From NCBI GenBank assembly GCA_031315995.1, contig JALDRG010000016.1, forward strand, positions 5,566 to 69,565: DNA of 64,000 nucleotides, read 5' to 3'. This document shows, in pieces, positions 4,824-40,609 of this stretch (positions are counted from its first letter, which is position 1; every line of letters starts with the position of its first letter). The translations under genes and the position numbers were made by a program. The notes beneath the pieces were generated by a model. It ran no database searches. It was given only the letters and a program-made list of their open reading frames with translations, and was not told the origin of the DNA. The DNA is from Nitrospira sp. (GTDB taxonomy: Bacteria > Nitrospirota > Nitrospiria > Nitrospirales > Nitrospiraceae).

Positions 4824-6095
4824 TCACCTTGGAAGGGGAACCGACGGGTCGTCGCTTGCTCCCCCCACAGACGTCTTGAGCCGAATCGTGCACCAAAAAG
4901 TCGACCCCTGTCCGAGGGTACTCTCGACGCCCACTGTCCCGCCCATCAACTCGGCCAATTGCTTGACAATGGCCAACCCCAACCCCGTGCCGCCGTATTT
5001 CCTCGTCATGGACCCATCCGCTTGCGAAAAGGCGTTCCACAGGCGAGCCTGCGCAGCCGGCTCCATGCCGATCCCGGTATCCTTCACTTCGAAACCGAGA
5101 GTCGTCTGTCCGTCGAACTCCTCCACGACAGTGACGTGCAGGACGATTTCTCCACGCTCTGTGAACTTCAATGCATTTCCCAGGAAGTTCACCAGGATCT
5201 GCCGTATGCGGACAGGATCTCCCCCGTAGTGATTGGAAAGGGAGTCCGGCAGGACACACTTCAAGACCACGCCCTTGGACGCCATCGGATGAGAAAACAG
5301 ATCGATTGCATCTTTCACCACCTGACGAAGATCGAACGGAACATTTTCGATCGTCAGCTTGCCGGCTTCGATCTTTGAAAAATCGAGGATGTCATTGATG
5401 ATTTGGAGCAGCGCCGCGCCCGAGCGTTGAACGGTTTCGGCATACCGGCGTTGTTTGTCGCTCAGGGGTGTCAGCAAGAGCAGCTCGTTCATGCCGAGGA
5501 TGCCGTTCATCGGAGTCCTGATTTCATGACTCATATTCGCCAAAAATTGCGATTTCGCCAGAGTCGCGGCCTCCGCAGCTTCCAATCGCGCTTTCACCTG
5601 TTGCGCGAGATTCCACTTTCTGGTCAATGAGGTCGCCAACTGCGACACTTCGACGCTGGAAAATGGTTTATTCAGAATCAAGAGGCGATCGTCATGTCCG
5701 AGTCGATGCACGATCTCCTCCCAGGGATGGTCCGTATAGGCCGTGCAAATAACCGTTTGAATATCAGGATCGACCTCCCAGAGATGCTCAATGGTCTGCA
5801 ACCCGTCCCAGCCCGGGGGCATGCGCATATCCACGAAGGCCACCGCATACGGCCGCCCTTCAGCACGAGCCATCTGCACCAGGGTGAGCGCGGACTGCCC
5901 CTGCTCAGCGCAGTCCAGTTCGAACCGTCCGAGCGCCCGCATGAGCGGCGGCGCGCCGAACAAGGCCGCCCGCGCTTGGTCGAGGCTCTCATCCCCGGCG
6001 CTTGCTTGAAGGATTTTTTGAAAGTCCTCGTGGATGGACTCGTTGTCGTCGATCACTAAGATCCGACGGTTTTCAGCAAGGGAACCCATGGTCAC
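4824..6095 (-). CDS. Hybrid response regulator / histidine kinase (REC-HisKA-HATPase)
   Basis: REC (VIDD, FVDMRMPPGWDG, KPF); H-box FLANMSHEIRTPMN; N, G1, F and G2 boxes (GNALKFT, DTGIG, GGTGLGL). Confidence 0.92.
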   Translation of the reverse strand: MTMGSLAENRRILVIDDNESIHEDFQKILQASAGDESLDQARAALFGAPPLMRALGRFELDCAEQGQSALTLVQMARAEGRPYAVAFVDMRMPPGWDGLQTIEHLWEVDPDIQTVICTAYTDHPWEEIVHRLGHDDRLLILNKPFSSVEVSQLATSLTRKWNLAQQVKARLEAAEAATLAKSQFLANMSHEIRTPMNGILGMNELLLLTPLSDKQRRYAETVQRSGAALLQIINDILDFSKIEAGKLTIENVPFDLRQVVKDAIDLFSHPMASKGVVLKCVLPDSLSNHYGGDPVRIRQILVNFLGNALKFTERGEIVLHVTVVEEFDGQTTLGFEVKDTGIGMEPAAQARLWNAFSQADGSMTRKYGGTGLGLAIVKQLAELMGGTVGVESTLGQGSTFWCTIRLKTSVGGASDDPSVPLPR

Positions 6096-6132
6096 TCATA
6101 TCTTTCTACCCGCGGCAACGGGATTTCCATCG

Positions 6133-7008
6133 TCATGGACGATCTCCTGTCCGAGTATCGCGTGCTCGATCAGCCATAAACTCGTGCATGTCCTTGATGA
6201 GGGCCAGAAGATCTTGGGCGCATCTTCGCAGGATCATCGTATGCTCTCGTTGCTCAGGATTGAGCGGGCTGTCGAGCAAGAGACTCACCTTGCCGACCAG
6301 TTCATTCATGGGCGTGAGAAGCTCATGGCCCATGATCGCCAAAAACTCTTCTTTCTCACGGAACACTGCCGCGGCATCGCCTAGATTCTGATCTTCAACA
6401 GTCTGTGCGATCCGTCGGACGATGTTTTCTTGAAGACGGTCGTTCGCTTCCTGCAACTCGACCGTTCGCTGGCTCACGCAGTACGCGAGGCTATTCATCT
6501 GCAGCTTTACCGAACGCGTCAGATTCCATTTTTTCGTAAGCGAATGGGCCAGCTGAACAACCTCGATGCTGTTGAATGGTTTCATAAGGATGAGCAGCTT
6601 ATCGGTGCTTCCGATTCGGCGACTCACGTCTTCCCACGGATGATCGGAATAGGCTGTGCAAATGACGATTTCAAGATCAGGATCGACATACCACAGATGT
6701 TCGATCGTTTCGAGGCCATCCCATCCCGGCGGCATACGCATGTCCACGAAAGCCATCGCGTAAGGGGAGCCCTCTCGTTGAGCACTCTGGAGCAAACCGA
6801 GCCCTTTTTGCCCTTGGTCCGTGAAGTCAACCTCATACCTCTCTTGAGACAGGACACTCGGCGGCTCTCCGAACAGGGCCACCCGAGCCTGATCGAGCGA
6901 GTCAGAATCTTTCGGCGGGGCAAGGATCTTACGAAAGTCCTCATGGATGGACTCGTTGTCGTCGATCACCAGAATCCGCCGATTGTCGATCGTCTCGTCG
7001 CGCTTCAT
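6133..7008 (-). CDS. Response regulator with coiled coil and truncated HisKA (no ATPase domain)
   Basis: REC domain is a close paralog of 4824..6095. C-terminal FLAIMGHELLTPMN, then a stop with no HATPase_c. Confidence 0.85.
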   Translation of the reverse strand: MKRDETIDNRRILVIDDNESIHEDFRKILAPPKDSDSLDQARVALFGEPPSVLSQERYEVDFTDQGQKGLGLLQSAQREGSPYAMAFVDMRMPPGWDGLETIEHLWYVDPDLEIVICTAYSDHPWEDVSRRIGSTDKLLILMKPFNSIEVVQLAHSLTKKWNLTRSVKLQMNSLAYCVSQRTVELQEANDRLQENIVRRIAQTVEDQNLGDAAAVFREKEEFLAIMGHELLTPMNELVGKVSLLLDSPLNPEQREHTMILRRCAQDLLALIKDMHEFMADRARDTRTGDRP

Positions 7009-8921
7009 GCGGCAGCCTCTGCCACGGTCAATGGAAGATCGAGTGTGAACGTGGCGCCACGTCCTTCTCCCGCGCTCTGCGCGAGTATGGCTCCGCCAAG
7101 ATTCTTGGCAGAGATGGCGGCACTATGCAGACCAAGACCGTGACCGGCATTTCTTGTAGTAAACCCCTGGGCAAACAGGCGTGAGATGTGCTCCGCCTTG
7201 ATGCCGCTCCCGGTATCGGACACCTCCAATCGCACCAGTCCTCTGCGGTCGGCGGGCAACTGGATTCTGACCGTGAGGCAATGCGAGTTCGCTGGATATT
7301 CGACCATGGCGTTCTTTGCGTTGGTGATCATATTCACCAGGATCTGAAGCACTTGGTGCCGATCCGTCACAATGGTCGGAGCCTTGGCATACTCCCGCAC
7401 GACTCGGATCCCATACTTTTCCGGCTCGGGCATCCCCATCATCAAGGCTTGCTCCATCAACTCTTCGACCACCGCTGTCTCACGAATGCTCCCCGAGTGG
7501 GCGATATCCTGCTGCGACAGAACCACGTGTTTAATATGGTCGACTTTTTTCACGAGGGAGTCGAGTTCGGCCTGGATGGTCTGGTGGCTCCCACTCAGGG
7601 ACTCGGCCACCAACCCCAGGTAAGAGGGAATCTGCTTTCCCTTCGGATCTTGCGTTAAGAACGTCTGCAAATTGTTCTGGTGCTCGTGGAACAGCGACGC
7701 GATTCGGCACACATCCCCGACCATCGGCTTCTTGAGGGTCTTTAACAGGGTATCGGTCGAAACGTTGATACTATTAAGCACATTGCCGACGTTGTGCAGC
7801 ACGCTCGATGCCACATCCGCCATCCCGGCCCGGCGGGACGCTTGCATGAGCTGCTGATGAAGTTCTTCCCGCTCCGCCTGGGCCTTTTTCCGCTCGTTAA
7901 TCTCACTGTGGAGATTCGCATTGGTGGTTTCGAGTTCCTCGTTCTTGTGCATAATCTGGGCGCGGGATGCTTCTAATTCCGTATTTGCGTCTCGGAGTTG
8001 GGAATTCGCTTGATCGAGTTCCGTGACATCATGGAAGGAAACCATGACCCCTCGGAGGGCCTCACGATCATCCAGGATCGGCGAACTCGTCACTACAAAT
8101 CGCCTGACCTCTCCATCCCCCTTACGCAATTCCAGCGGCAGGGCCGGAGCGGCTCGTTTGTGCTTACGGGCCATGATCCAAGGCAGTTCCGGTTCCACGG
8201 CGTTCGACCTGCCGGCTTCCCACGGAAACTCACAGAGATCATGCCCCATCAACGCATCTGGTCCCGCTCCGACACGGTCGCCGAACATCTTGTTCGCCAA
8301 TACGATCCGATCCTGCGGATCCACCAGCACCACGCCTACCGGGAGCACGTCGAGTGCGTTCCTCACTCGGTCAGGCACCACGGAGGAAGGATCCAGTTGC
8401 CTGAGCGTCCGTTTCATGAATGTCAGATACCCCAGATAGCCGCAGACAGCCATGAGTGCGAGAAACTGTATCCAGGGGTCCTGCACAATACCGCCGGCGA
8501 GAGACTCGGAGAGCGGACGGAACGCGACCTCCAGCGTCCCCCACCGGGACTCCCCGTTCATGATGGGTACCTGCACCTGATCAAAGGTCGATTCATCGCC
8601 CGGTCGCCTCACCCACTCTTTCTGGTGTTCTCCTGCCTGAGACAGTACCTGTCCATCGGCACGTCGCAGCGCCACGGATCGGATTTGGTCATTGCGCTCG
8701 ACCAATGCCTGCATGGTGATCTGCATGGTCTCTATCTCAGTCCGTTCCGCGAGTTTGGAGTACTGCACCGCCAGAACCTCGGCGAGAGATCGACGGTACC
8801 AGAGCGCGTCTTCGCTCTGGTCGGGCGCCACCTTCAGCAGCACATTGCCCACCATCATGAGGCTGAGCGTGAGGGACACCAACCCGAACGAAATCCATAT
8901 GATCGGCGAACCACGTTTCAC
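7005..8921 (-). CDS. Membrane PAS-domain sensor histidine kinase
   Basis: Two hydrophobic helices around an extracytoplasmic domain; PAS (GVVLVD...LAN); H-box SVLHNVGN; DTGSGI and GHGLGL boxes. 4-nt overlap with the next gene. Confidence 0.92.
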   Translation of the reverse strand: MKRGSPIIWISFGLVSLTLSLMMVGNVLLKVAPDQSEDALWYRRSLAEVLAVQYSKLAERTEIETMQITMQALVERNDQIRSVALRRADGQVLSQAGEHQKEWVRRPGDESTFDQVQVPIMNGESRWGTLEVAFRPLSESLAGGIVQDPWIQFLALMAVCGYLGYLTFMKRTLRQLDPSSVVPDRVRNALDVLPVGVVLVDPQDRIVLANKMFGDRVGAGPDALMGHDLCEFPWEAGRSNAVEPELPWIMARKHKRAAPALPLELRKGDGEVRRFVVTSSPILDDREALRGVMVSFHDVTELDQANSQLRDANTELEASRAQIMHKNEELETTNANLHSEINERKKAQAEREELHQQLMQASRRAGMADVASSVLHNVGNVLNSINVSTDTLLKTLKKPMVGDVCRIASLFHEHQNNLQTFLTQDPKGKQIPSYLGLVAESLSGSHQTIQAELDSLVKKVDHIKHVVLSQQDIAHSGSIRETAVVEELMEQALMMGMPEPEKYGIRVVREYAKAPTIVTDRHQVLQILVNMITNAKNAMVEYPANSHCLTVRIQLPADRRGLVRLEVSDTGSGIKAEHISRLFAQGFTTRNAGHGLGLHSAAISAKNLGGAILAQSAGEGRGATFTLDLPLTVAEAAA

Positions 8922-28673: not shown

Positions 28674-29531
28674 ATGCCGCCACAAACACCAGCAGCGGTC
28701 ATTGAAGCCCAGCGCCAGGACTGGAACCGTGTTGCCGCCGGTTGGGATCAATGGGATCAGTTTTTCAATCGGACCATGGCTTTCATCAACCATCGGCTGG
28801 TCGCCGATGCGCGCATACGGCCGGGCCTTCAGGTGTTGGATCTTGGATCAGGCACCGGCTATCCAGCGCTCCTGGCCGGTGAGGTGGTGGGGTCGGATGG
28901 ACGGGTGGTGGGGATCGATCTCGCCGAAGCCATGTTGGCGGTGGCCACTCGCAAAGCCAGGACGCTCGGCTTGGGGCACGTGACCTTTCGCACCGGAGAT
29001 GTCACCGTCCTGCCGCTCGAGACCGGCTCAATCGATGCGGTGATCAGCCGATTCTGCCTCATGTTCCTGCCGGAGATACCTAAGGCCGCCGCAGAGATCG
29101 CTCGCGTGCTGAAGCCGGGAGGGTATGTCGCGGCCGCCGTCTGGTCTGCACCCGACAAGAACCCATTCATTCGCATTCCCATGGACGTGATCAAAACCAT
29201 TATCCCCTTGCCGCCGCCTGACCCGGAAGCGCCGGGGATCTTCAGGCTTGCGAGACCGGGTGACCTAGCCGGCATGTTTGAGCAGGTTGGCCTCAGGCCG
29301 CTCGATGACGAAGAGTTCACGGCCGAGGTGAACTATTCCACGGCGGAGGAGTTCTTTCGCGGATTGATGGATATTGCCGCACCGATTCAAAACCTGTTCG
29401 CCAAACTGACACCGGAGCAACAGGCCGAGGCGGAGCGAGGCATCATCAAAGCGGTGAATGACTATCGCACGCCACAGGGGGTCTCGTTGCCGATCGCGGT
29501 GAGGATGGTGAGCGCGCGCAAGCCGCAGTAG
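28674..29531 (+). CDS. Class I SAM-dependent methyltransferase (UbiE-like)
   Basis: VLDLGSGTG, GIDLAEAML, DAVISRFCLMF, RVLKPGG. Confidence 0.9.
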   Translation: MPPQTPAAVIEAQRQDWNRVAAGWDQWDQFFNRTMAFINHRLVADARIRPGLQVLDLGSGTGYPALLAGEVVGSDGRVVGIDLAEAMLAVATRKARTLGLGHVTFRTGDVTVLPLETGSIDAVISRFCLMFLPEIPKAAAEIARVLKPGGYVAAAVWSAPDKNPFIRIPMDVIKTIIPLPPPDPEAPGIFRLARPGDLAGMFEQVGLRPLDDEEFTAEVNYSTAEEFFRGLMDIAAPIQNLFAKLTPEQQAEAERGIIKAVNDYRTPQGVSLPIAVRMVSARKPQ

Positions 29532-33135: not shown

Positions 33136-33612
33136 ATGTCGCAACCAATGGCATCCCTCTCCTTGATCCTTGGCCTCGCGCTCACCGTCGCGGCCTGCAA
33201 TAGCCTGGGCTCAAGCCCAGCCGGCTCCGCAACTGTCGAGAAATCACTGTACGATCGATTAGGCGGGAAAACAGCCATCACCGCAGTGGTGGAGGACTTC
33301 GTCGGTCGTGTGGCAGCGGACAATCGCATTAATGGCAAATTTGCGAATGCCAATATTCCACGCCTGAAATCCATGCTCGTCGACCAAATCTGCCAGGCCT
33401 CGGGCGGGCCGTGCACCTACACCGGCCGGGACATGAAACGCACGCATGCGGGCATGGGCGTCAGCAGCAGCGAGTTCGACGCCCTGGTGGGCGACCTCGT
33501 CGCCACGCTGAACAAGTTTAAAGTTCCTGAGCGGGAGAAGAACGAGCTGCTCGGCGCGCTGGGCCCGATGAAGGGTGACATTGTCGAGAAGCCGATGGCC
33601 TCGCTGCAGTAG
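33136..33612 (+). CDS. Group I truncated haemoglobin, lipoprotein
   Basis: [40 protein letters not shown]; lipobox VAAC; GGAGG RBS. Confidence 0.92.
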
Positions 33613-33817
33613 CTGCCCGCGCACTCAGCGCAGTGGCCGGAGCAACCGCAGGGTTGGCCCGGCCACTACCCCCACACCCTCGCCGCCACATCATGCCGGT
33701 CTCCCAAGGCGATCTCATCTCCATACCGTCTCCAGGCTCATTCGCTCCACAGGCGTCTCTTCCTATATAGTCAGTTCCACCGGCCGCAGGCCGTCGGTGC
33801 CTGGTCTTCAACGGAGC

Positions 33818-35212
33818 ATGACAGCCGTGGGCACACAATCCCGACCACTTAAAAATCGTGCAGGCGTAGTAGCCCTCGTCGCGCTTGGGACTCTCGTCCT
33901 TGCAGGCCTCGTCTGGTTTGCCGATCGATACGATGACCGGCCTCGGCAGGCGGTTGACCTGACGGCCTTCGCGGAAGACAGATATCCCGAAAATCCTGAG
34001 CTCATCAGTCAGGTCTTTGGAAAGTATTCTCATCGTCAGCTGATCATCCAACAACTCGGAGATAGTCGCTTCCGCCTCCTTCTACAACCTGCGACGTCCG
34101 AGGCTGCCGCGGTCGAGCTGACCGATATCGATCTCGCACATTTTGTCGCGGCAGTCCCCGCCTATGCAAAGACCGATGCGGATCTGACGCGAGTGGGATT
34201 GATCGACCGCGAATGGAACCGTCAACAAGTTCGCTTCGCGCGGCATTCCCCTCACGTGCATGTGCGCAAGGGAGGCGACGGTTTCGAGCAACGCGCGCTG
34301 AGCCGCATCGACCTTGCCCGTAACTGCCTCAACGCCGGTTTATGGGAATTAATACTGTTCACCATAGAAGCGGGCGAGGAGCGGGTCTATGAACATCTCT
34401 GGTTCACATTTCCGTTGGGACTGTACAAGATGCTCTTCGAACGCGTGAACGGTCTGTCGTATTGGTCACACTGGTGGTCGCTCGAACACTGGACGGATCC
34501 CTCAGGAACGCGGATCCCGATGGAGCGGATTCGGACAGTCGAACAGCAATGGCCGGTTCAAGCCAAGATAGGCTGGGACGAACCTGTCGCAATGCAGGGA
34601 GAGCAAGCCCGGAAGCGGAGGAACATTCTGACGCCCATCGCCGCGACCTACCGGGACTGGTATACCCGGCCGGCGCGGTTCGCGAGCTTCATTCCACCGG
34701 GACGGTATTCCCGGGCTCATCCGCGGGACACCGAACTACACTATCTCGCCGATTTGGTTGGTGCGACCGTCCGGCGGGTAACAGTCATCAAGGACTCACA
34801 CCCTCTCTTAGAGATCGACCTCGCCTTTCGCAGCAGCAAGACTGGAGAAGCAACCCGGCTCATTCTCGGCGGATTCGATGGGGCTGCCATTCCAGTGTTG
34901 CCATCAGCACATTACGATCGTGGCTGGCAGGTTCCCCTCGGCATCGGCAATCCCGGGTTCTTTGAATCCTACGAACAGGTGACTACCCATCCTCCCGTGC
35001 AACGAAGTTTCTACGGATTTCATTTGGACAGGGAAGACCGATGGCTGAATCATCATGCCATCGGCGTCGATGGGCCGCTCCTGCATTGGGACGCCGATGA
35101 TCCCTCGCGTCTCCATCTGTATCTTCTGAGTTACGAGCGGCACGCACTCTTGAACCATGTCGTCCTCACGATGCCGGCAGATCTCATGCGACCTGCCGGC
35201 CATATTCGCTAA
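33818..35212 (+). CDS. Membrane-anchored hypothetical protein (~464 aa)
   Basis: Long ORF; start re-called at MTAVG with GGAG RBS; one N-terminal TM. No family recognised. Confidence 0.7.
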   Translation: MTAVGTQSRPLKNRAGVVALVALGTLVLAGLVWFADRYDDRPRQAVDLTAFAEDRYPENPELISQVFGKYSHRQLIIQQLGDSRFRLLLQPATSEAAAVELTDIDLAHFVAAVPAYAKTDADLTRVGLIDREWNRQQVRFARHSPHVHVRKGGDGFEQRALSRIDLARNCLNAGLWELILFTIEAGEERVYEHLWFTFPLGLYKMLFERVNGLSYWSHWWSLEHWTDPSGTRIPMERIRTVEQQWPVQAKIGWDEPVAMQGEQARKRRNILTPIAATYRDWYTRPARFASFIPPGRYSRAHPRDTELHYLADLVGATVRRVTVIKDSHPLLEIDLAFRSSKTGEATRLILGGFDGAAIPVLPSAHYDRGWQVPLGIGNPGFFESYEQVTTHPPVQRSFYGFHLDREDRWLNHHAIGVDGPLLHWDADDPSRLHLYLLSYERHALLNHVVLTMPADLMRPAGHIR

Positions 35213-35474
35213 GACCATGGATCAGAGCGGTCGGCGCGCCCAGATCACGCGATCAGCGGCAGGCATGGGCTTACCCACGCGACGACCGGTTTCTCTCAAT
35301 GACGCGTTCCGTAAAAAAAATCCACCGCTCCGGATTCCCCTGGCAAGAACGCCGCGCCCATCATCGTTTCGAGTGGTAGGTGACCCTTCACTCATGCCAT
35401 ATGCTGAAGCAGCAAAATCTTCCGTCGTTCATTGTACGATTCATTGTCAGGCCCGCTTTTCTACAAAAACGAGA

Positions 35475-35505
35475 TTGACCTTTATCAGAATGATCGGTGC
35501 ATAAT
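35475..35505 (+). promoter_or_regulatory. Sigma70-like promoter with 19-bp spacer (MerR-type geometry)
   Basis: TTGACC-N19-CATAAT containing ACC-N15-GGT. Confidence 0.4.
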
Positions 35506-35542
35506 CGTACCCCGATGAGGGCTACAAAGGGTGAGGGAGACC

Positions 35543-36730
35543 ATGCCAATAGACGACATCACGCAGAAAGTCAGCGACCGATATGCCAGGGCAGCGGCCA
35601 CGGGCGAACAGATGTGCTGTCCGACGGGATACGATTTTGCCGACCTCAAATCATTCGTCCTTGAAGAAGTTCTGACCATCTCCTACGGCTGTGGCACCCC
35701 CGCAGGTCTGAATACGGTTCAATCGGGCGAAACCGTCCTGGATATCGGCTCGGGCGGAGGAATCGACTGTTTTGAAGCCGCCCGCCGAGTGGGACCCACC
35801 GGCCGGGTCATCGGAATCGATATGACCGACACGATGTTGGAAATCGCCCGCCGCAATGCCCCCATCGTCGCCGGGAACCTGGGGTACGCGAACTCGAATG
35901 TCGAATTCCGCAAAGGGATGGCCGATGCCATGCCGGTGGAGGACGCCAGCGTCGATCTGATCATTTCCAATTGTGTGATTAACTTGGCGCCCGACAAACG
36001 GAAGGTCTTCCGCGAAATGTACCGGGTGATCAAACCGGGCGGCCGGTTTACGATTTCCGACATCGTGTCCGATCAGGTCGTGCCCCAATACCTGGTGCAC
36101 GATGCCGCCAAGTGGGGCGACTGCCTCTCCGGCGCGTTGCAGGTGCAGGACTACATCGGCGGGATGGTCGATGCGGGATTTCGTGCCGTCCACCAGATTA
36201 AGTCCACACCCTGGCAGTCCATCGACGGCATCCACTTTTTATCGGTCACGCTGACCGGATACAAGTTTCCACCTGTCGCCGACAAGACGGCCCCCTCCTA
36301 TGCCACCCTCCGGGGTCCTTTCTTGAGCGTCACGGATGAATTGGGGCAACGGTACGAACGCGGCATTCCACAAGCCATCGATGCCCATAGCGCGCAACTA
36401 TTGCAGAGCGAGCCGCTGCGCTCGCTTTTTCTGATCGGCCCCGCACCCATCGCGATCCACGCCACCGACCCGCGCTGGTGCGCGATCCTCCCGGATGAGA
36501 AGCCCTGTGTCTGGCAGAGCGCCTATGCCATTCTGACCGGACCGATCATCACTGCCGAAGACGACGATCACCACCAGTACTACCGTGGCGTGCCGCTGGA
36601 AATTTGTTCAAAGACCCTTCAAGTCCTGACACATGAGGCGTATGGTCCTCACTTTACAATCTACCAACGGGCCTCCACGGGTGTGACCGGCACCGAAGTC
36701 GCGTGCAGCCCGACCGGCGGCTGTTGCTGA
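35543..36730 (+). CDS. arsM: Arsenite methyltransferase-like protein with C-terminal extension (arsenosugar-associated ArsM type)
   Basis: MCCP, SYGCGTP, VLDIGSGGG, ISNCVINL, WGDCLSGA; ~150-aa extra domain ending GGCC; upstream of arsS. Confidence 0.8.
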   Translation: MPIDDITQKVSDRYARAAATGEQMCCPTGYDFADLKSFVLEEVLTISYGCGTPAGLNTVQSGETVLDIGSGGGIDCFEAARRVGPTGRVIGIDMTDTMLEIARRNAPIVAGNLGYANSNVEFRKGMADAMPVEDASVDLIISNCVINLAPDKRKVFREMYRVIKPGGRFTISDIVSDQVVPQYLVHDAAKWGDCLSGALQVQDYIGGMVDAGFRAVHQIKSTPWQSIDGIHFLSVTLTGYKFPPVADKTAPSYATLRGPFLSVTDELGQRYERGIPQAIDAHSAQLLQSEPLRSLFLIGPAPIAIHATDPRWCAILPDEKPCVWQSAYAILTGPIITAEDDDHHQYYRGVPLEICSKTLQVLTHEAYGPHFTIYQRASTGVTGTEVACSPTGGCC

Positions 36731-36764
36731 GCGTGGCCTTGAGGCTGGGGAAAGGGTCGATCCG

Positions 36765-37802
36765 ATGGGTCTAAGCCTGCTCGCTCGACGAGACCCGCTT
36801 GCGGCCCCGTCAGAACAGCTGCGTCTCCTAGCGCAGCCGACGGCGTGCGCGCCATTCGACAGGGCCCTGGATCAGGCAGGACTCTCGCCTCTCGAGGCGA
36901 ACGGCATCACGACGCTCCAACTCAATCTCGGCAAGCTCTGCAATCAAACCTGCCGACATTGCCACGTGGATGCCGGTCCGGATCGAACGGAGGTCATGTC
37001 GAAAGACACCCTCGATCTGTGTCTCCAAGCCCTCGCTCGCACGGATATTCCCACGGTAGATATCACGGGAGGCGCCCCCGAACTCAATCCGCACTTTCGA
37101 TGGCTCGTCGAACAGGCCAAATCGCTCGGCCGTCAGGTGCTGGACCGGTGCAATCTTTCCGTCCTGCTCTTACCGTCACAAGCGGATCTGGGAGAATTTC
37201 TGGCACAACACCGCGTGGAGGTCATTGCGTCGCTGCCTTCCTATCAGGCGACACAAACGGACGCCCAACGCGGGGAAGGTATCTTTGACAAATCGATTGA
37301 GGCTCTCCGGTTATTGAACCGACTGGGCTATGGCAAGGAGGGCACCGGACTCACGCTGAACCTCGTGTACAACCCGGTCGGCGCCTTTCTTCCGCCGAAG
37401 CAGGAGGGGATCGAGACCAAGTTTCGGAAAGAACTGGCGGCACATCACGGCGTCAGCTTCACGCGCCTCTATACGATTACCAATATGCCCATCAGCCGAT
37501 TTCTGGAGTTCCTCAGGGAGAGCGGCAACTACGACAGCTACATGCAACGGCTAGCCGCGGCGTTCAATCCCACGGCGGCAGCAGGGGTGATGTGTCGCTA
37601 TACCCTGTCGGTCGGGTGGGACGGTACGCTTTACGATTGCGACTTCAATCAGATGCTGGAATTGCCGGTCTCGCAAGGGACACCCAGGCATATTCGAAAC
37701 TTCAATCCGGCGCTCTTACACCGTCGCCGGATCGTGACGCGGAACCATTGCTACGGATGTACGGCCGGATCCGGCTCGTCCTGCGGCGGCGCTGTCACCT
37801 AG
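36765..37802 (+). CDS. arsS: Radical SAM / Cys-rich protein, arsenosugar biosynthesis ArsS family
   Basis: LQLNLGKLCNQTCRHC, DITGGAPELNP, VMCR, YDCDFNQ, HCYGCTAGSGSSCGG. Confidence 0.88.
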   Translation: MGLSLLARRDPLAAPSEQLRLLAQPTACAPFDRALDQAGLSPLEANGITTLQLNLGKLCNQTCRHCHVDAGPDRTEVMSKDTLDLCLQALARTDIPTVDITGGAPELNPHFRWLVEQAKSLGRQVLDRCNLSVLLLPSQADLGEFLAQHRVEVIASLPSYQATQTDAQRGEGIFDKSIEALRLLNRLGYGKEGTGLTLNLVYNPVGAFLPPKQEGIETKFRKELAAHHGVSFTRLYTITNMPISRFLEFLRESGNYDSYMQRLAAAFNPTAAAGVMCRYTLSVGWDGTLYDCDFNQMLELPVSQGTPRHIRNFNPALLHRRRIVTRNHCYGCTAGSGSSCGGAVT

Positions 37803-38239
37803 CGGGCCCCCGGTGTGAACGGCGTCGTGTCCTGAGTCAGGAACGTCTTGATACGCGTAAAAATCTCCTGACGGACCCGTCGAAACAGAGTTCGACGGGC
37901 TTCGTCCGAATCAGTGGCTCCGGCCGGATCGTCGAAACTCCAATGCGACAGATGCGTGGGGCCAGACCAGGTGGGGCAAGATTCTTTTGCCCGGTCGCAG
38001 ACCGTAATCACGTGGTCGAACGGTTGCGCCACGAATTCAGACACATGCTTGGAACGGTGTCCCGAGATGTCGATCCCCACCTCTGCCATGGCTTCAACCG
38101 AACTTGGATTCAGACCGACCGGGTGAGTGCCCGCGCTGTACACCTCGAACTGATCACCTGCCAGATGCCGTAACCACCCCTCCGCCATCTGACTGCGCGC
38201 GGAATTCCCGGTGCAGAGAAACAAAACCCGCGACTTCAT
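37799..38239 (-). CDS. arsC: Arsenate reductase, LMW-PTP fold (thioredoxin type)
   Basis: CTGNSARSQMAE, ITVCDRAKESCP, WSFDDP. Confidence 0.92.
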   Translation of the reverse strand: MKSRVLFLCTGNSARSQMAEGWLRHLAGDQFEVYSAGTHPVGLNPSSVEAMAEVGIDISGHRSKHVSEFVAQPFDHVITVCDRAKESCPTWSGPTHLSHWSFDDPAGATDSDEARRTLFRRVRQEIFTRIKTFLTQDTTPFTPGAR

Positions 38240-39330
38240 GCGGCGACCTCCTGATCGAACCAGTGTCTGGTGTGGTTACACACACTGCAGACGGATAACA
38301 TGACCGGCACTTCCACCAACACTCCGACCACCGTGGCCAACGCGGCGCCGGACTCCGGGCCGAATAGGGCGATGGCCGTGGCGACAGCAAGTTCGAAGAA
38401 GTTGCTGGCGCCGATCAGCGCTCCTGGTGCTGCGATGGCATATGGCACCCGCCACCGATGCATCAGCCCATAGGCCAGCGACGAATTCATGTAGACCTGC
38501 AGGAGAATCGGCACCGCGATCAGCACCACATGCACCGTCTTCCCCAGGATGTTCTGCGACTGAAACGCGAAAATACACACCAGGGTGAGGAGCAGCGCCG
38601 CCATCGTCACCGGAGCGAACCGCGGCAAGAACTGTTCTTCCATCCAACGCAGCCCGTACCGATGCACCAGCCAGAACCGAAGCCCGGCGCCGACGATCAA
38701 TGGAATCACGATAAAGATCGCCACCGAGTACAGCAGCACATCGAACGGCACGGTCAACGATGACGCTCCGCTGACCAGCAAACCCACAATCGGCACAAAC
38801 AGCACCAGCATGATAAGGTCGTTCACAGCGACCTGGACTAGAGTGTAGGCGGGGTCCCCGTCCGTCAGATAGCTCCACACGAATACCATCGCCGTGCATG
38901 GAGCCGCGGCGAGAATAATGGTGCCCGCAATGTATTGATCGGCCTCGGCAGGGGTGATCCAGATGGAGAATACGTGCCGAAAAAATACCCAGGCAAAGAA
39001 GGCCATGGAGAACGGCTTGACCACCCAATTCACGAAAAGCGTGATCAGGAGTCCGACCGGTCGCGTCCCCACGTTACGAACTGAGGCGAACTCAACCTTC
39101 ATCATCATCGGCACGATCATTAGCCAGATCAACAGGGCGATCGGCAGATTGATATGGCTGCCCTGCCCGATCTCCGCCCCTCGAAGGCTCAACACCAGAC
39201 CAGGCGCCGCCTGCCCGATCAGCACGCCTGCTACCATGCACAACGCCACCCAGAGCGTCAGATATCGTTCAAAGAACGACAGCCGCTTCTCAGGCACATG
39301 CGACGCATCGACCGATAACGCCAGTTCCAT
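38236..39330 (-). CDS. acr3: ACR3 arsenite efflux transporter
   Basis: SFFERYLTLW, APCTAMVFVW, GASNFFELA, GVLVEVP; start re-called at MELALS. Confidence 0.95.
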   Translation of the reverse strand: MELALSVDASHVPEKRLSFFERYLTLWVALCMVAGVLIGQAAPGLVLSLRGAEIGQGSHINLPIALLIWLMIVPMMMKVEFASVRNVGTRPVGLLITLFVNWVVKPFSMAFFAWVFFRHVFSIWITPAEADQYIAGTIILAAAPCTAMVFVWSYLTDGDPAYTLVQVAVNDLIMLVLFVPIVGLLVSGASSLTVPFDVLLYSVAIFIVIPLIVGAGLRFWLVHRYGLRWMEEQFLPRFAPVTMAALLLTLVCIFAFQSQNILGKTVHVVLIAVPILLQVYMNSSLAYGLMHRWRVPYAIAAPGALIGASNFFELAVATAIALFGPESGAALATVVGVLVEVPVMLSVCSVCNHTRHWFDQEVAA

Positions 39331-39368: not shown

Positions 39369-40193
39369 TTAGGCGGTCACCGCCGGTTTCGTGGCTCGAA
39401 TGAACGCACTCATGAATTTGTCGTCGACTTGAGTCACGAGTAGATCGCTGGAGAGGTCCGTACCGACCAGAAATTCCTTGACGTCGTCGGCGTGATAGAC
39501 CCGCGTAGGCTCGATTCCGATCTCGACAAATCCTGCCTGGCTCAGCATGTCCCGATATTCCGTCTCTTCCAGCGCCCCGGCGACACAACCAGCCCAGAGT
39601 TCGAGATTTCGGCGGATTTCCGAGGGAACCGCCCCGCGCACCACAATGTCGGACAGCGCCAGCCGGCCTCCAGGGCGCAGGACGCGAAATGCTTCCGCAA
39701 ACACGCGCTCCTTTTCGCCGGACAGATTCACGACGCAATTGCTGATGATGACATCCACTGATTCGTCGGGTAGCGGGATCTGCTCGATTTCGCCCTTCAG
39801 AAACTCCACATTCTCTACGGCGGATTGACGCTGATTCTCTTTCGCCAACGCCAACATCTCATCGGTCATATCCAGCCCATAGGCTTTCCCCGTCGGGCCG
39901 ACCCGCTTGGCGGAGAGCAACACATCGATGCCGCCGCCGGACCCCAGATCCAAGACAATCTCACCGGCATGAAGTTCAGCCAAGGCGGTGGGATTCCCAC
40001 AGCCCAGTGACGCAGCCACCGCATCGGCCGGCAACTCCTGGCGCTCCAGATCCGAATAGAGATTTGAGGTGATCGGATCGACATTCGCCAGCGCGGGGGA
40101 GGCCCCGCAGCAGGAACTGCCTCCACTCTTGGCTCGCACGGCTGCTTCCCCATACTTTTCCTTGATCAGATCTCGAATGGTGTGTGCGGACAT
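39369..40193 (-). CDS. arsM: Arsenite S-adenosylmethionine methyltransferase
   Basis: SSCCG, SLGCGNP, LDLGSGGGID, ISNCVVNL, WAGCVAGA. Confidence 0.93.
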   Translation of the reverse strand: MSAHTIRDLIKEKYGEAAVRAKSGGSSCCGASPALANVDPITSNLYSDLERQELPADAVAASLGCGNPTALAELHAGEIVLDLGSGGGIDVLLSAKRVGPTGKAYGLDMTDEMLALAKENQRQSAVENVEFLKGEIEQIPLPDESVDVIISNCVVNLSGEKERVFAEAFRVLRPGGRLALSDIVVRGAVPSEIRRNLELWAGCVAGALEETEYRDMLSQAGFVEIGIEPTRVYHADDVKEFLVGTDLSSDLLVTQVDDKFMSAFIRATKPAVTA

Positions 40194-40251: not shown

Positions 40252-40557
40252 TCAACAGCACCCTGCGACGCGACGGGCCCTCTTTGCCTGCTTGAATGAA
40301 TCGACGAGGTCACCAAGTTCGGCCAGCGCTTCGGCGTTGACGGCATAATACATCCATCGGCCCTCTCGCCGATCTTGAATCACTCCCGCTTCCTTGAGAA
40401 CCCTGAGATGAAAGGAGAGCCTCGACTGCCCGGCCTGGAGTCGATCCATCAACTCGCAGACACAGCATTCGCCCGCTCTCAGTTCGTCCAAAATCTCCAA
40501 ACGGGTTGGGTCGGCAAGCGCATGGAACAATTCAGCCGCCCGTTCGGAATGTGTCAT
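40252..40557 (-). CDS. arsR: ArsR/SmtB family repressor
   Basis: ALADPTRLEIL, ECCVCEL, SRLSFHLRVLKEAG, C-terminal GCC. Confidence 0.93.
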   Translation of the reverse strand: MTHSERAAELFHALADPTRLEILDELRAGECCVCELMDRLQAGQSRLSFHLRVLKEAGVIQDRREGRWMYYAVNAEALAELGDLVDSFKQAKRARRVAGCC

Positions 40558-40585
40558 CCGGCTCCCCTTCATGGAAGGAAATATA

Positions 40586-40609
40586 TATCAACAATATTTG
40601 ATAAGTCAA
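40586..40609 (-). promoter_or_regulatory. ars promoter -35 box and ArsR operator
   Basis: Minus-strand TTGACT (40609-40604) directly followed by the perfect inverted repeat TATCAA-N6-TTGATA (40586-40603). Confidence 0.75.

Follow-up and report, generated by a model that had tools for sequence, protein, structure and literature searches.

The synthesis of arsenosugars is usually credited to phototrophs and has, to our knowledge, been demonstrated only in cyanobacteria. In Synechocystis, as summarised in a preprint (bioRxiv 10.1101/2022.09.23.509062, citing Xue et al. 2017, 2019), arsM and arsS are co-transcribed neighbours and ArsM supplies the substrate of ArsS. ArsS belongs to the radical S-adenosylmethionine (SAM) enzymes and adenosylates dimethylarsenite (DMAs(III)) in vitro to 5'-deoxy-5'-dimethylarsinoyl-adenosine (DDMAA), an activity known, by reconstitution, only for cyanobacterial ArsS (PMC13598754). 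The present analysis concerns a pair of this kind, arsM1-arsS, in a 64-kb window (i.e. the whole stretch of DNA that was analysed; all coordinates are window positions) of contig JALDRG010000016.1 from Nitrospira sp. The original prediction had described an ArsM-like gene followed 34 nucleotides later by an ArsS-family radical SAM gene, and both are indeed present there and intact. Judging from these genes and their relatives, it is likely that arsM1 and arsS form an operon of two genes whose products take the first committed steps in making arsenosugar-type organoarsenicals, while the late steps would be carried out by unlinked genes.

As far as that preprint describes the pair of Synechocystis sp. 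PCC 6803, the two loci share their layout (a methyltransferase gene followed on one strand by that of a radical SAM/DUF3641 enzyme), the equivalog to which ArsS belongs (TIGR04167) and the catalytic cysteines of ArsM. They differ in that the host is here a chemolithoautotrophic Nitrospira instead of a phototroph, in that the 395-amino-acid ArsM1 lineage fails the cyanobacterial arsenosugar-ArsM model NF038099, and in that the adjoining ars operon contains an additional arsM of the canonical type. With respect to the arsenosugar set of NCBIfam (TIGR04167, TIGR04168, TIGR04169, TIGR04282 and TIGR04283), four of the five families score above their cut-offs in this genome, but unlike in the clustered NCBIfam set their genes are scattered over contigs C8, C2, C23 and C33. 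The ArsL-ArsM pathway to arsinothricin (bioRxiv 10.1101/2024.02.01.577332) likewise has a C-As bond-forming radical SAM enzyme as the partner of an ArsM-type methyltransferase, although ArsL transfers a 3-amino-3-carboxypropyl group, whereas ArsS would transfer an adenosyl group, and ArsM1 stays far below the cut-off of the arsinothricin ArsM model. Finally, the convergent operon resembles classical arsR-acr3-arsC resistance operons, including an ArsR with a CVC motif, but it additionally holds arsM2.

In the proposed scheme, ArsM1 would methylate As(III) twice with SAM to give DMAs(III), after which the [4Fe-4S] cluster of ArsS would reductively cleave a second SAM and the 5'-deoxyadenosyl radical would be added to the arsenic, with DDMAA as the predicted product. 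DDMAA would be converted further by unlinked genes, likely to ribosyl arsenicals: methylthioadenosine (MTA) phosphorylase could take off the adenine, and the nucleotidyltransferase-like TIGR04282 protein and the TIGR04283 protein (glycosyltransferase family 2) could activate and transfer the dimethylarsinoyl-ribosyl unit. The neighbouring arsR-arsM2-acr3-arsC genes would then serve as the ordinary detoxification arm (i.e. reduction, efflux and volatilising methylation).

Family and catalytic residues of ArsS and ArsM1

That the radical SAM protein belongs inside the ArsS family, as had been predicted, was borne out by its score of 451.1 bits against equivalog TIGR04167 (cut-off 300; model positions 2-303 of 303), a cut-off that was passed only by Synechococcus elongatus among 14 control genomes. 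The protein contains the Pfam domains DUF3641 (PF12345, 185 bits) and Radical_SAM, and the CX3CX2C motif of the radical SAM cluster reads CNQTCRHC (C59/C63/C66). In an alignment of 81 ArsS proteins from many phyla, C59, C63, C66, C277, C292, C329, C332 and C340 are invariant, all of which are kept here, and the end of DUF3641 (HCYGCTAGxGSSCGG), which is rich in cysteine or selenocysteine in the family, has the all-cysteine form in this protein. Its relatives align from residue 1, consistent with a start at 36765. The PDB copy searched holds no solved ArsS structure, only distant radical SAM enzymes matching. ArsS is thus a clear member of its family with intact catalytic residues.

The upstream gene is less straightforward. 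Its product contains a Methyltransf_31 domain (Pfam, 1.2e-33) whose class I SAM-binding fold has VLDIGSGGGID as its GxGxG motif, and its best solved structural matches are the arsenite methyltransferases 5evj (Chlamydomonas) and 4fr0 (Cyanidioschyzon). The motifs GCG (C50), SNCVINL (C144) and GDCLSGAL (C194) align with 5evj and the protein also carries CC25/26, so that all four As(III)-binding or catalytic cysteine positions are present, which we take to be the equivalents of C44, C72, C174 and C224 of CmArsM. Among 119 orthologues of at least 68% identity (every source name given being Nitrospira, Nitrospiraceae or Nitrospirota), the conservation of Cys25/26/50/144/194 and of a CxPxGxCC tail at the C-terminus is 98-100%, the four catalytic cysteine positions (100%) and the SAM motif being invariant. 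Curated models give a different picture, and their scores count against an arsenosugar-type ArsM: the best NCBIfam match, the arsenite methyltransferase model NF008823, reaches 239.7 bits vs. a cut-off of 263, the arsenosugar-specific NF038099 only 152.5 vs. 400, and the arsinothricin model NF040538 212.4 vs. 500 in a partial match. NCBI names the orthologues just 'methyltransferase domain-containing protein'. By its residues and structural relatives, and not by model membership, the protein is therefore best called ArsM-like, i.e. a putative ArsM-type methyltransferase.

Two further candidates were considered and set aside. The C-terminal cysteine tail does not serve as a mark specific to ArsS-linked ArsMs, cysteine-rich ends being found also on the ArsS-unlinked short ArsMs of relatives. 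A third 'ArsM-like' match in the window (28674-29531, plus strand) comprises only the Rossmann core, scores 102 bits and matches the UbiE/MenG models similarly, so that it is regarded as a generic class I methyltransferase; in the related loci L020 and L021, weak matches of this type also lie some 3 kb upstream of arsM1.

Candidate genes for the late steps

Glycosyltransferase and phosphorylase genes had been said not to be adjacent to the pair, and in fact no TIGR04282, TIGR04283 or TIGR04169 match lies within the window. The accompanying suggestion that the end product may differ has been weakened by the whole-genome search for the remaining arsenosugar-associated genes, which had been proposed as a check. 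This search gave TIGR04283 (243.8 bits vs. a cut-off of 182) and TIGR04282 (217.6 vs. 134) as an adjacent pair on contig C2, a second copy of TIGR04283 on C33 (213.6 bits), the arsenosugar biosynthesis-associated peroxidase-like protein TIGR04169 on C23 (197.7 vs. 120) and MTA phosphorylase on C34 (334.6 vs. 274.85). Both TIGR04283 and TIGR04282 carry the NCBIfam label 'arsenosugar biosynthesis glycosyltransferase'. An MTA/S-adenosylhomocysteine nucleosidase was not found in the whole-genome search. Because the late-step candidates lie elsewhere in the genome, the missing neighbours give no reason to expect a differing end product.

The cassette could nevertheless end at DDMAA or a simple derivative of it, as a means of detoxification or sequestration, in which case the dispersed transferases would serve an unrelated glycoconjugate pathway and no true arsenosugar would be formed. 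Several findings weigh on this side and against arsenosugar synthesis proper. TIGR04168 was not found in the whole-genome search, the genes of the transferases and of TIGR04169 are on different contigs from the pair and have unrelated neighbours (KamA-like and dCTP deaminase genes in the one case, a radical SAM methyltransferase of ribosomally synthesised and post-translationally modified peptides (RiPPs) in the other), and TIGR04282, TIGR04283 and TIGR04169 owe their 'arsenosugar' names to gene association and not to assays. Moreover, TIGR04282 is kept in 4/5 Nitrospiraceae genomes without ArsS, one of which is closed, and it may therefore serve another purpose in Nitrospiraceae. On the other hand, in 18 of 80 loci, every one of the 18 from another phylum, ArsS has homologues of TIGR04282/TIGR04283 directly beside it (no Nitrospira-type locus having arsenosugar accessory genes there), which favours the association in general, the three families all score above their curated cut-offs in this genome, and the MTA phosphorylase present would in principle be able to remove the adenine of DDMAA. 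Taken together, an end at DDMAA seems possible, if on the unlikely side.

With regard to the surroundings of these genes, the C2 pair (L103, G000:C2:54000-72000; 5153-7844) is preceded by a gene resembling KamA-family radical SAM aminomutases, a dCTP deaminase of the long form (PRK07559) and a 135-amino-acid open reading frame (ORF) of no assigned family, and is followed on the other strand by a HAD-UbiA type prenyltransferase (PRK08238). The TIGR04169 gene on C23 (L110, G000:C23:262070-265396) comes after an inositol-monophosphatase-like gene and is convergent with a gene for a radical SAM C-methyltransferase of RiPP maturation (TIGR03975, 462 bits).

Distribution and probable coupling of arsM1 and arsS

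A second consideration in favour of such an operon is the constancy with which the two genes occur together. In 11 of the 16 Nitrospira-type loci fetched, arsM1 lies upstream of arsS. Among 121 Nitrospiraceae genomes, ArsS is present in 111 (83/86 of the high-quality ones) and an ArsM1 orthologue in 95, with both proteins in 94, ArsS only in 17, neither in nine (among them the closed G040 and, of high quality, G042 and G103) and ArsM1 only in one, which is 79% complete and has the gene cut at a contig edge. Within this sample, adjacency was compared by eye for about a dozen single-copy genomes and for the duplicated cassettes, and in the pairs compared the genes share a strand at a distance of 0.1-0.6 kb. 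G024, G052, G107 and G110 have two copies of the entire pair, and G087 has three. Since the pair recurs in 11/16 loci and is adjacent in the genomes compared, the pairing is not due to chance.

It could still be argued that the adjacency is an inherited gene order without functional coupling, with ArsM2 or the environment as the source of DMAs(III) for ArsS. The 17 genomes with ArsS and without ArsM1, in which a short ArsM2-type gene is often the only one present, fit such a view, as does one Nitrospiraceae genome in which arsM1 and arsS lie on separate contigs. In other phyla, too, any ArsM lies within 6 kb of ArsS in only 11 of 64 loci. Both this figure and the ArsS-only genomes count against the proposed scheme, and it follows that ArsS is not strictly dependent on a dedicated neighbouring methylase. 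Gene order without coupling would, however, not readily account for ArsM1 occurring without ArsS just once, at a contig edge of an incomplete genome, for the multiplication of the pair as a whole in five genomes or more, or for ArsM genes next to ArsS also in Planctomycetota, Acidobacteriota and Bacteroidota, which makes this explanation improbable. At the other extreme, ArsM1 could be a dedicated, ArsS-dependent lineage whose invariant C-terminal CxPxGxCC tail would pass DMAs(III) directly to ArsS, with most Nitrospiraceae being habitual producers of adenosyl- or ribosyl-arsenicals via dispersed late genes (those of TIGR04282, TIGR04283, TIGR04169 and MTA phosphorylase); this stronger version of the two-gene operon seems rather doubtful.

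A further connection is found in relatives of the window locus. In six of 11 Nitrospira loci, a gene for an ArsR/SmtB protein (~120 amino acids; NF033788, 90 bits vs. a cut-off of 55) lies between arsM1 and arsS, e.g. at L014:5589-5948, with equivalent gaps in L017, L018, L022, L026 and L027 (the gap in the ArsR-bearing loci being 407-495 nucleotides). The embedded ArsR has a single cysteine in the helix-3 region (EKCVTDL) and GCC near the C-terminus, a pattern that presumably recalls ArsRs selective for methylarsenite. It is without counterpart in the window, where the only arsR is that of the convergent operon. The presence of this gene in relatives ties the cassette to arsenic. Accordingly, it is very improbable that ArsM1 is a diverged paralogue for another metalloid or thiol substrate (e.g. 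antimony, selenium or tellurium) whose product is adenosylated by ArsS: its position below all curated ArsM cut-offs, its non-committal NCBI name, the canonical ArsM2 already in the ars operon and the first definition of the ArsS family as selenoproteins (with an in-frame TGA in 8/47 Nitrospirota matches) would suit such a substrate, but the catalytic cysteines and SAM motif invariant across 119 orthologues, the arsenite methyltransferases as closest structures, the adjoining ars operon and the embedded ArsR in relatives all argue for arsenic.

In the phylum Nitrospirota, 46 of 81 genomes, from 10 of 17 families, have an ArsS that passes the cut-off, and arsS is therefore old and common in the phylum and no peculiarity of this genome. 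The closest ArsS loci are labelled Nitrospira or Nitrospiraceae (up to 88% identity), and on taxonomy the original prediction was right to call the host a probable nitrifier. The genome (93.6% complete) gave no match to an ammonia monooxygenase family; as the control likewise matched nowhere, this result is not informative on comammox status.

The arsM1-arsS pair represents, in intact and strongly conserved form, a known and database-recognised cassette that is present in most of the Nitrospiraceae genomes searched. As the pair is already recognised by public models and is widespread, the value of these results is ecological and confirmatory, not conceptual, with as modest additions an apparently ArsS-dependent ArsM1 lineage that is missed by annotation models, the embedded ArsR in relatives and the dispersed late-step candidates. 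A literature search gave no paper in which Nitrospira was connected with arsenosugar synthesis. In soils, freshwater, drinking-water filters and wastewater plants, Nitrospiraceae dominate among the nitrite oxidisers. Should the cassette be active, their nitrifying biofilms would alter arsenic speciation, including in drinking-water filters and in aquifers where arsenic affects health, and ArsM1 would be a natural model for a methylase feeding a radical SAM partner. If the stronger version, with most Nitrospiraceae as habitual producers, is true, the family would constitute a large, unrecognised and non-phototrophic source of arsenosugar-type compounds.

Putative regulatory elements and the convergent ars operon

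The coordinates of the features in the window are collected in Table 1. As had been predicted, the pair converges on an ars operon, which was confirmed as the minus-strand genes arsR-arsM2-acr3-arsC; the second, canonical arsM in it had gone unmentioned.

Table 1. Features of the arsM1-arsS locus and the convergent ars operon (window positions)
Feature	Position	Strand	Description
Promoter-like element upstream of arsM1	35475-35505	+	TTGACC, 17-nucleotide spacer, TGCATA (overlapping CATAAT), read from the sequence
arsM1	35543-36730	+	395 amino acids; long-form arsenite methyltransferase-like gene of a Nitrospiraceae clade
Spacer arsM1/arsS	36731-36764	+	34 nucleotides; holds the arsS ribosome-binding site GGGGAAAGGG
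arsS	36765-37802	+	345 amino acids; ArsS-family radical SAM enzyme, cysteine form, not selenocysteine
arsC	37799-38239	-	Thioredoxin-type arsenate reductase, last operon gene; Pfam LMWPc; TIGR02691 140 bits, cut-off of 174 not reached
acr3	38236-39330	-	Arsenite efflux permease; TIGR00832 360.7 bits vs. cut-off 282.8
arsM2	39369-40193	-	Canonical short arsenite methyltransferase, 274 amino acids; NF008823 370.7 bits vs. cut-off 263
arsR	40252-40572	-	ArsR/SmtB repressor, CVC motif, C-terminal GCC; NF033788 105 bits vs. cut-off 55
arsR promoter-like site	40580-40609	-	Promoter scan, 10/12 positions matched

The ORF lister gave the arsM1 frame as 35531-36730, starting at a GTG. The likely start is the ATG at 35543 with GGGTGAGGGAG in front of it, because the relatives are 395 amino acids long and align from residue 1. 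For acr3, the true ATG is at 39330, with AAGGAAGAAGGAG as ribosome-binding site. The site scan found no terminator-like hairpin in the arsM1/arsS spacer, and at the other end the stops of arsS and arsC (both TAG) share CTAG at 37799-37802, i.e. the convergent genes overlap by four nucleotides. An intergenic terminator is therefore impossible and overlap of the antisense transcripts is to be expected.

Upstream of arsM1, the arrangement TTGAC(C/G)-N17-18-T(A/G)CAT(A/G) lies 60-70 nucleotides before the ATG in the window and in 11/11 aligned Nitrospira loci, and would be a promoter by its form and conservation, although a generic consensus promoter scan gave no match for it. Just upstream of this element lies a plus-strand ORF of 545 amino acids (33575-35212), which is overlapped by another of 115 amino acids (35157-35504, plus strand), both without Pfam or NCBIfam match. 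At the arsR site, a perfect palindrome, TATCAA-N6-TTGATA (40586-40603), fills the 18-nucleotide spacer between -35 and -10 and is likely the operator of ArsR, to judge from this position. A similar operator upstream of arsM1, which would point to ArsR control there, was considered and rejected: only ATCA-N3-TGAT is present there, with other spacing and in 0/11 relatives, and the repeat finder reported nothing.

ArsM2, encoded between arsR and acr3, carries all four ArsM cysteine motifs. In the arsS-adjoining arsR-acr3-arsC operons of the relatives L021 and L022 no ArsM2 match lies between arsR and acr3, and arsM2 therefore looks like a lineage-specific insertion. In a maximum-likelihood tree (with rows chosen by the feature under test and a very long outgroup branch), ArsM2 clusters with ArsS-unlinked short ArsMs (support 99/97), which come mostly from Nitrospiraceae genomes without ArsM1. 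ArsM1 forms a clade of its own (97/98) that is weakly joined (80/79) to ArsS-linked ArsMs of Bacteroidota. Because the tree separates the two with good support, ArsM1 is not a recent copy of ArsM2. The tree leaves three ArsS-linked clades as a trichotomy, so that monophyly of the ArsS-linked ArsMs was dropped and a single origin is not claimed. In one Nitrospiraceae genome without ArsS, an ArsM-like frame (G015:C11:6174-6926) has two in-frame TGA codons, and it may represent a selenoprotein ArsM variant of the kind listed by NCBIfam, e.g. ArsM_AhpD_UU.

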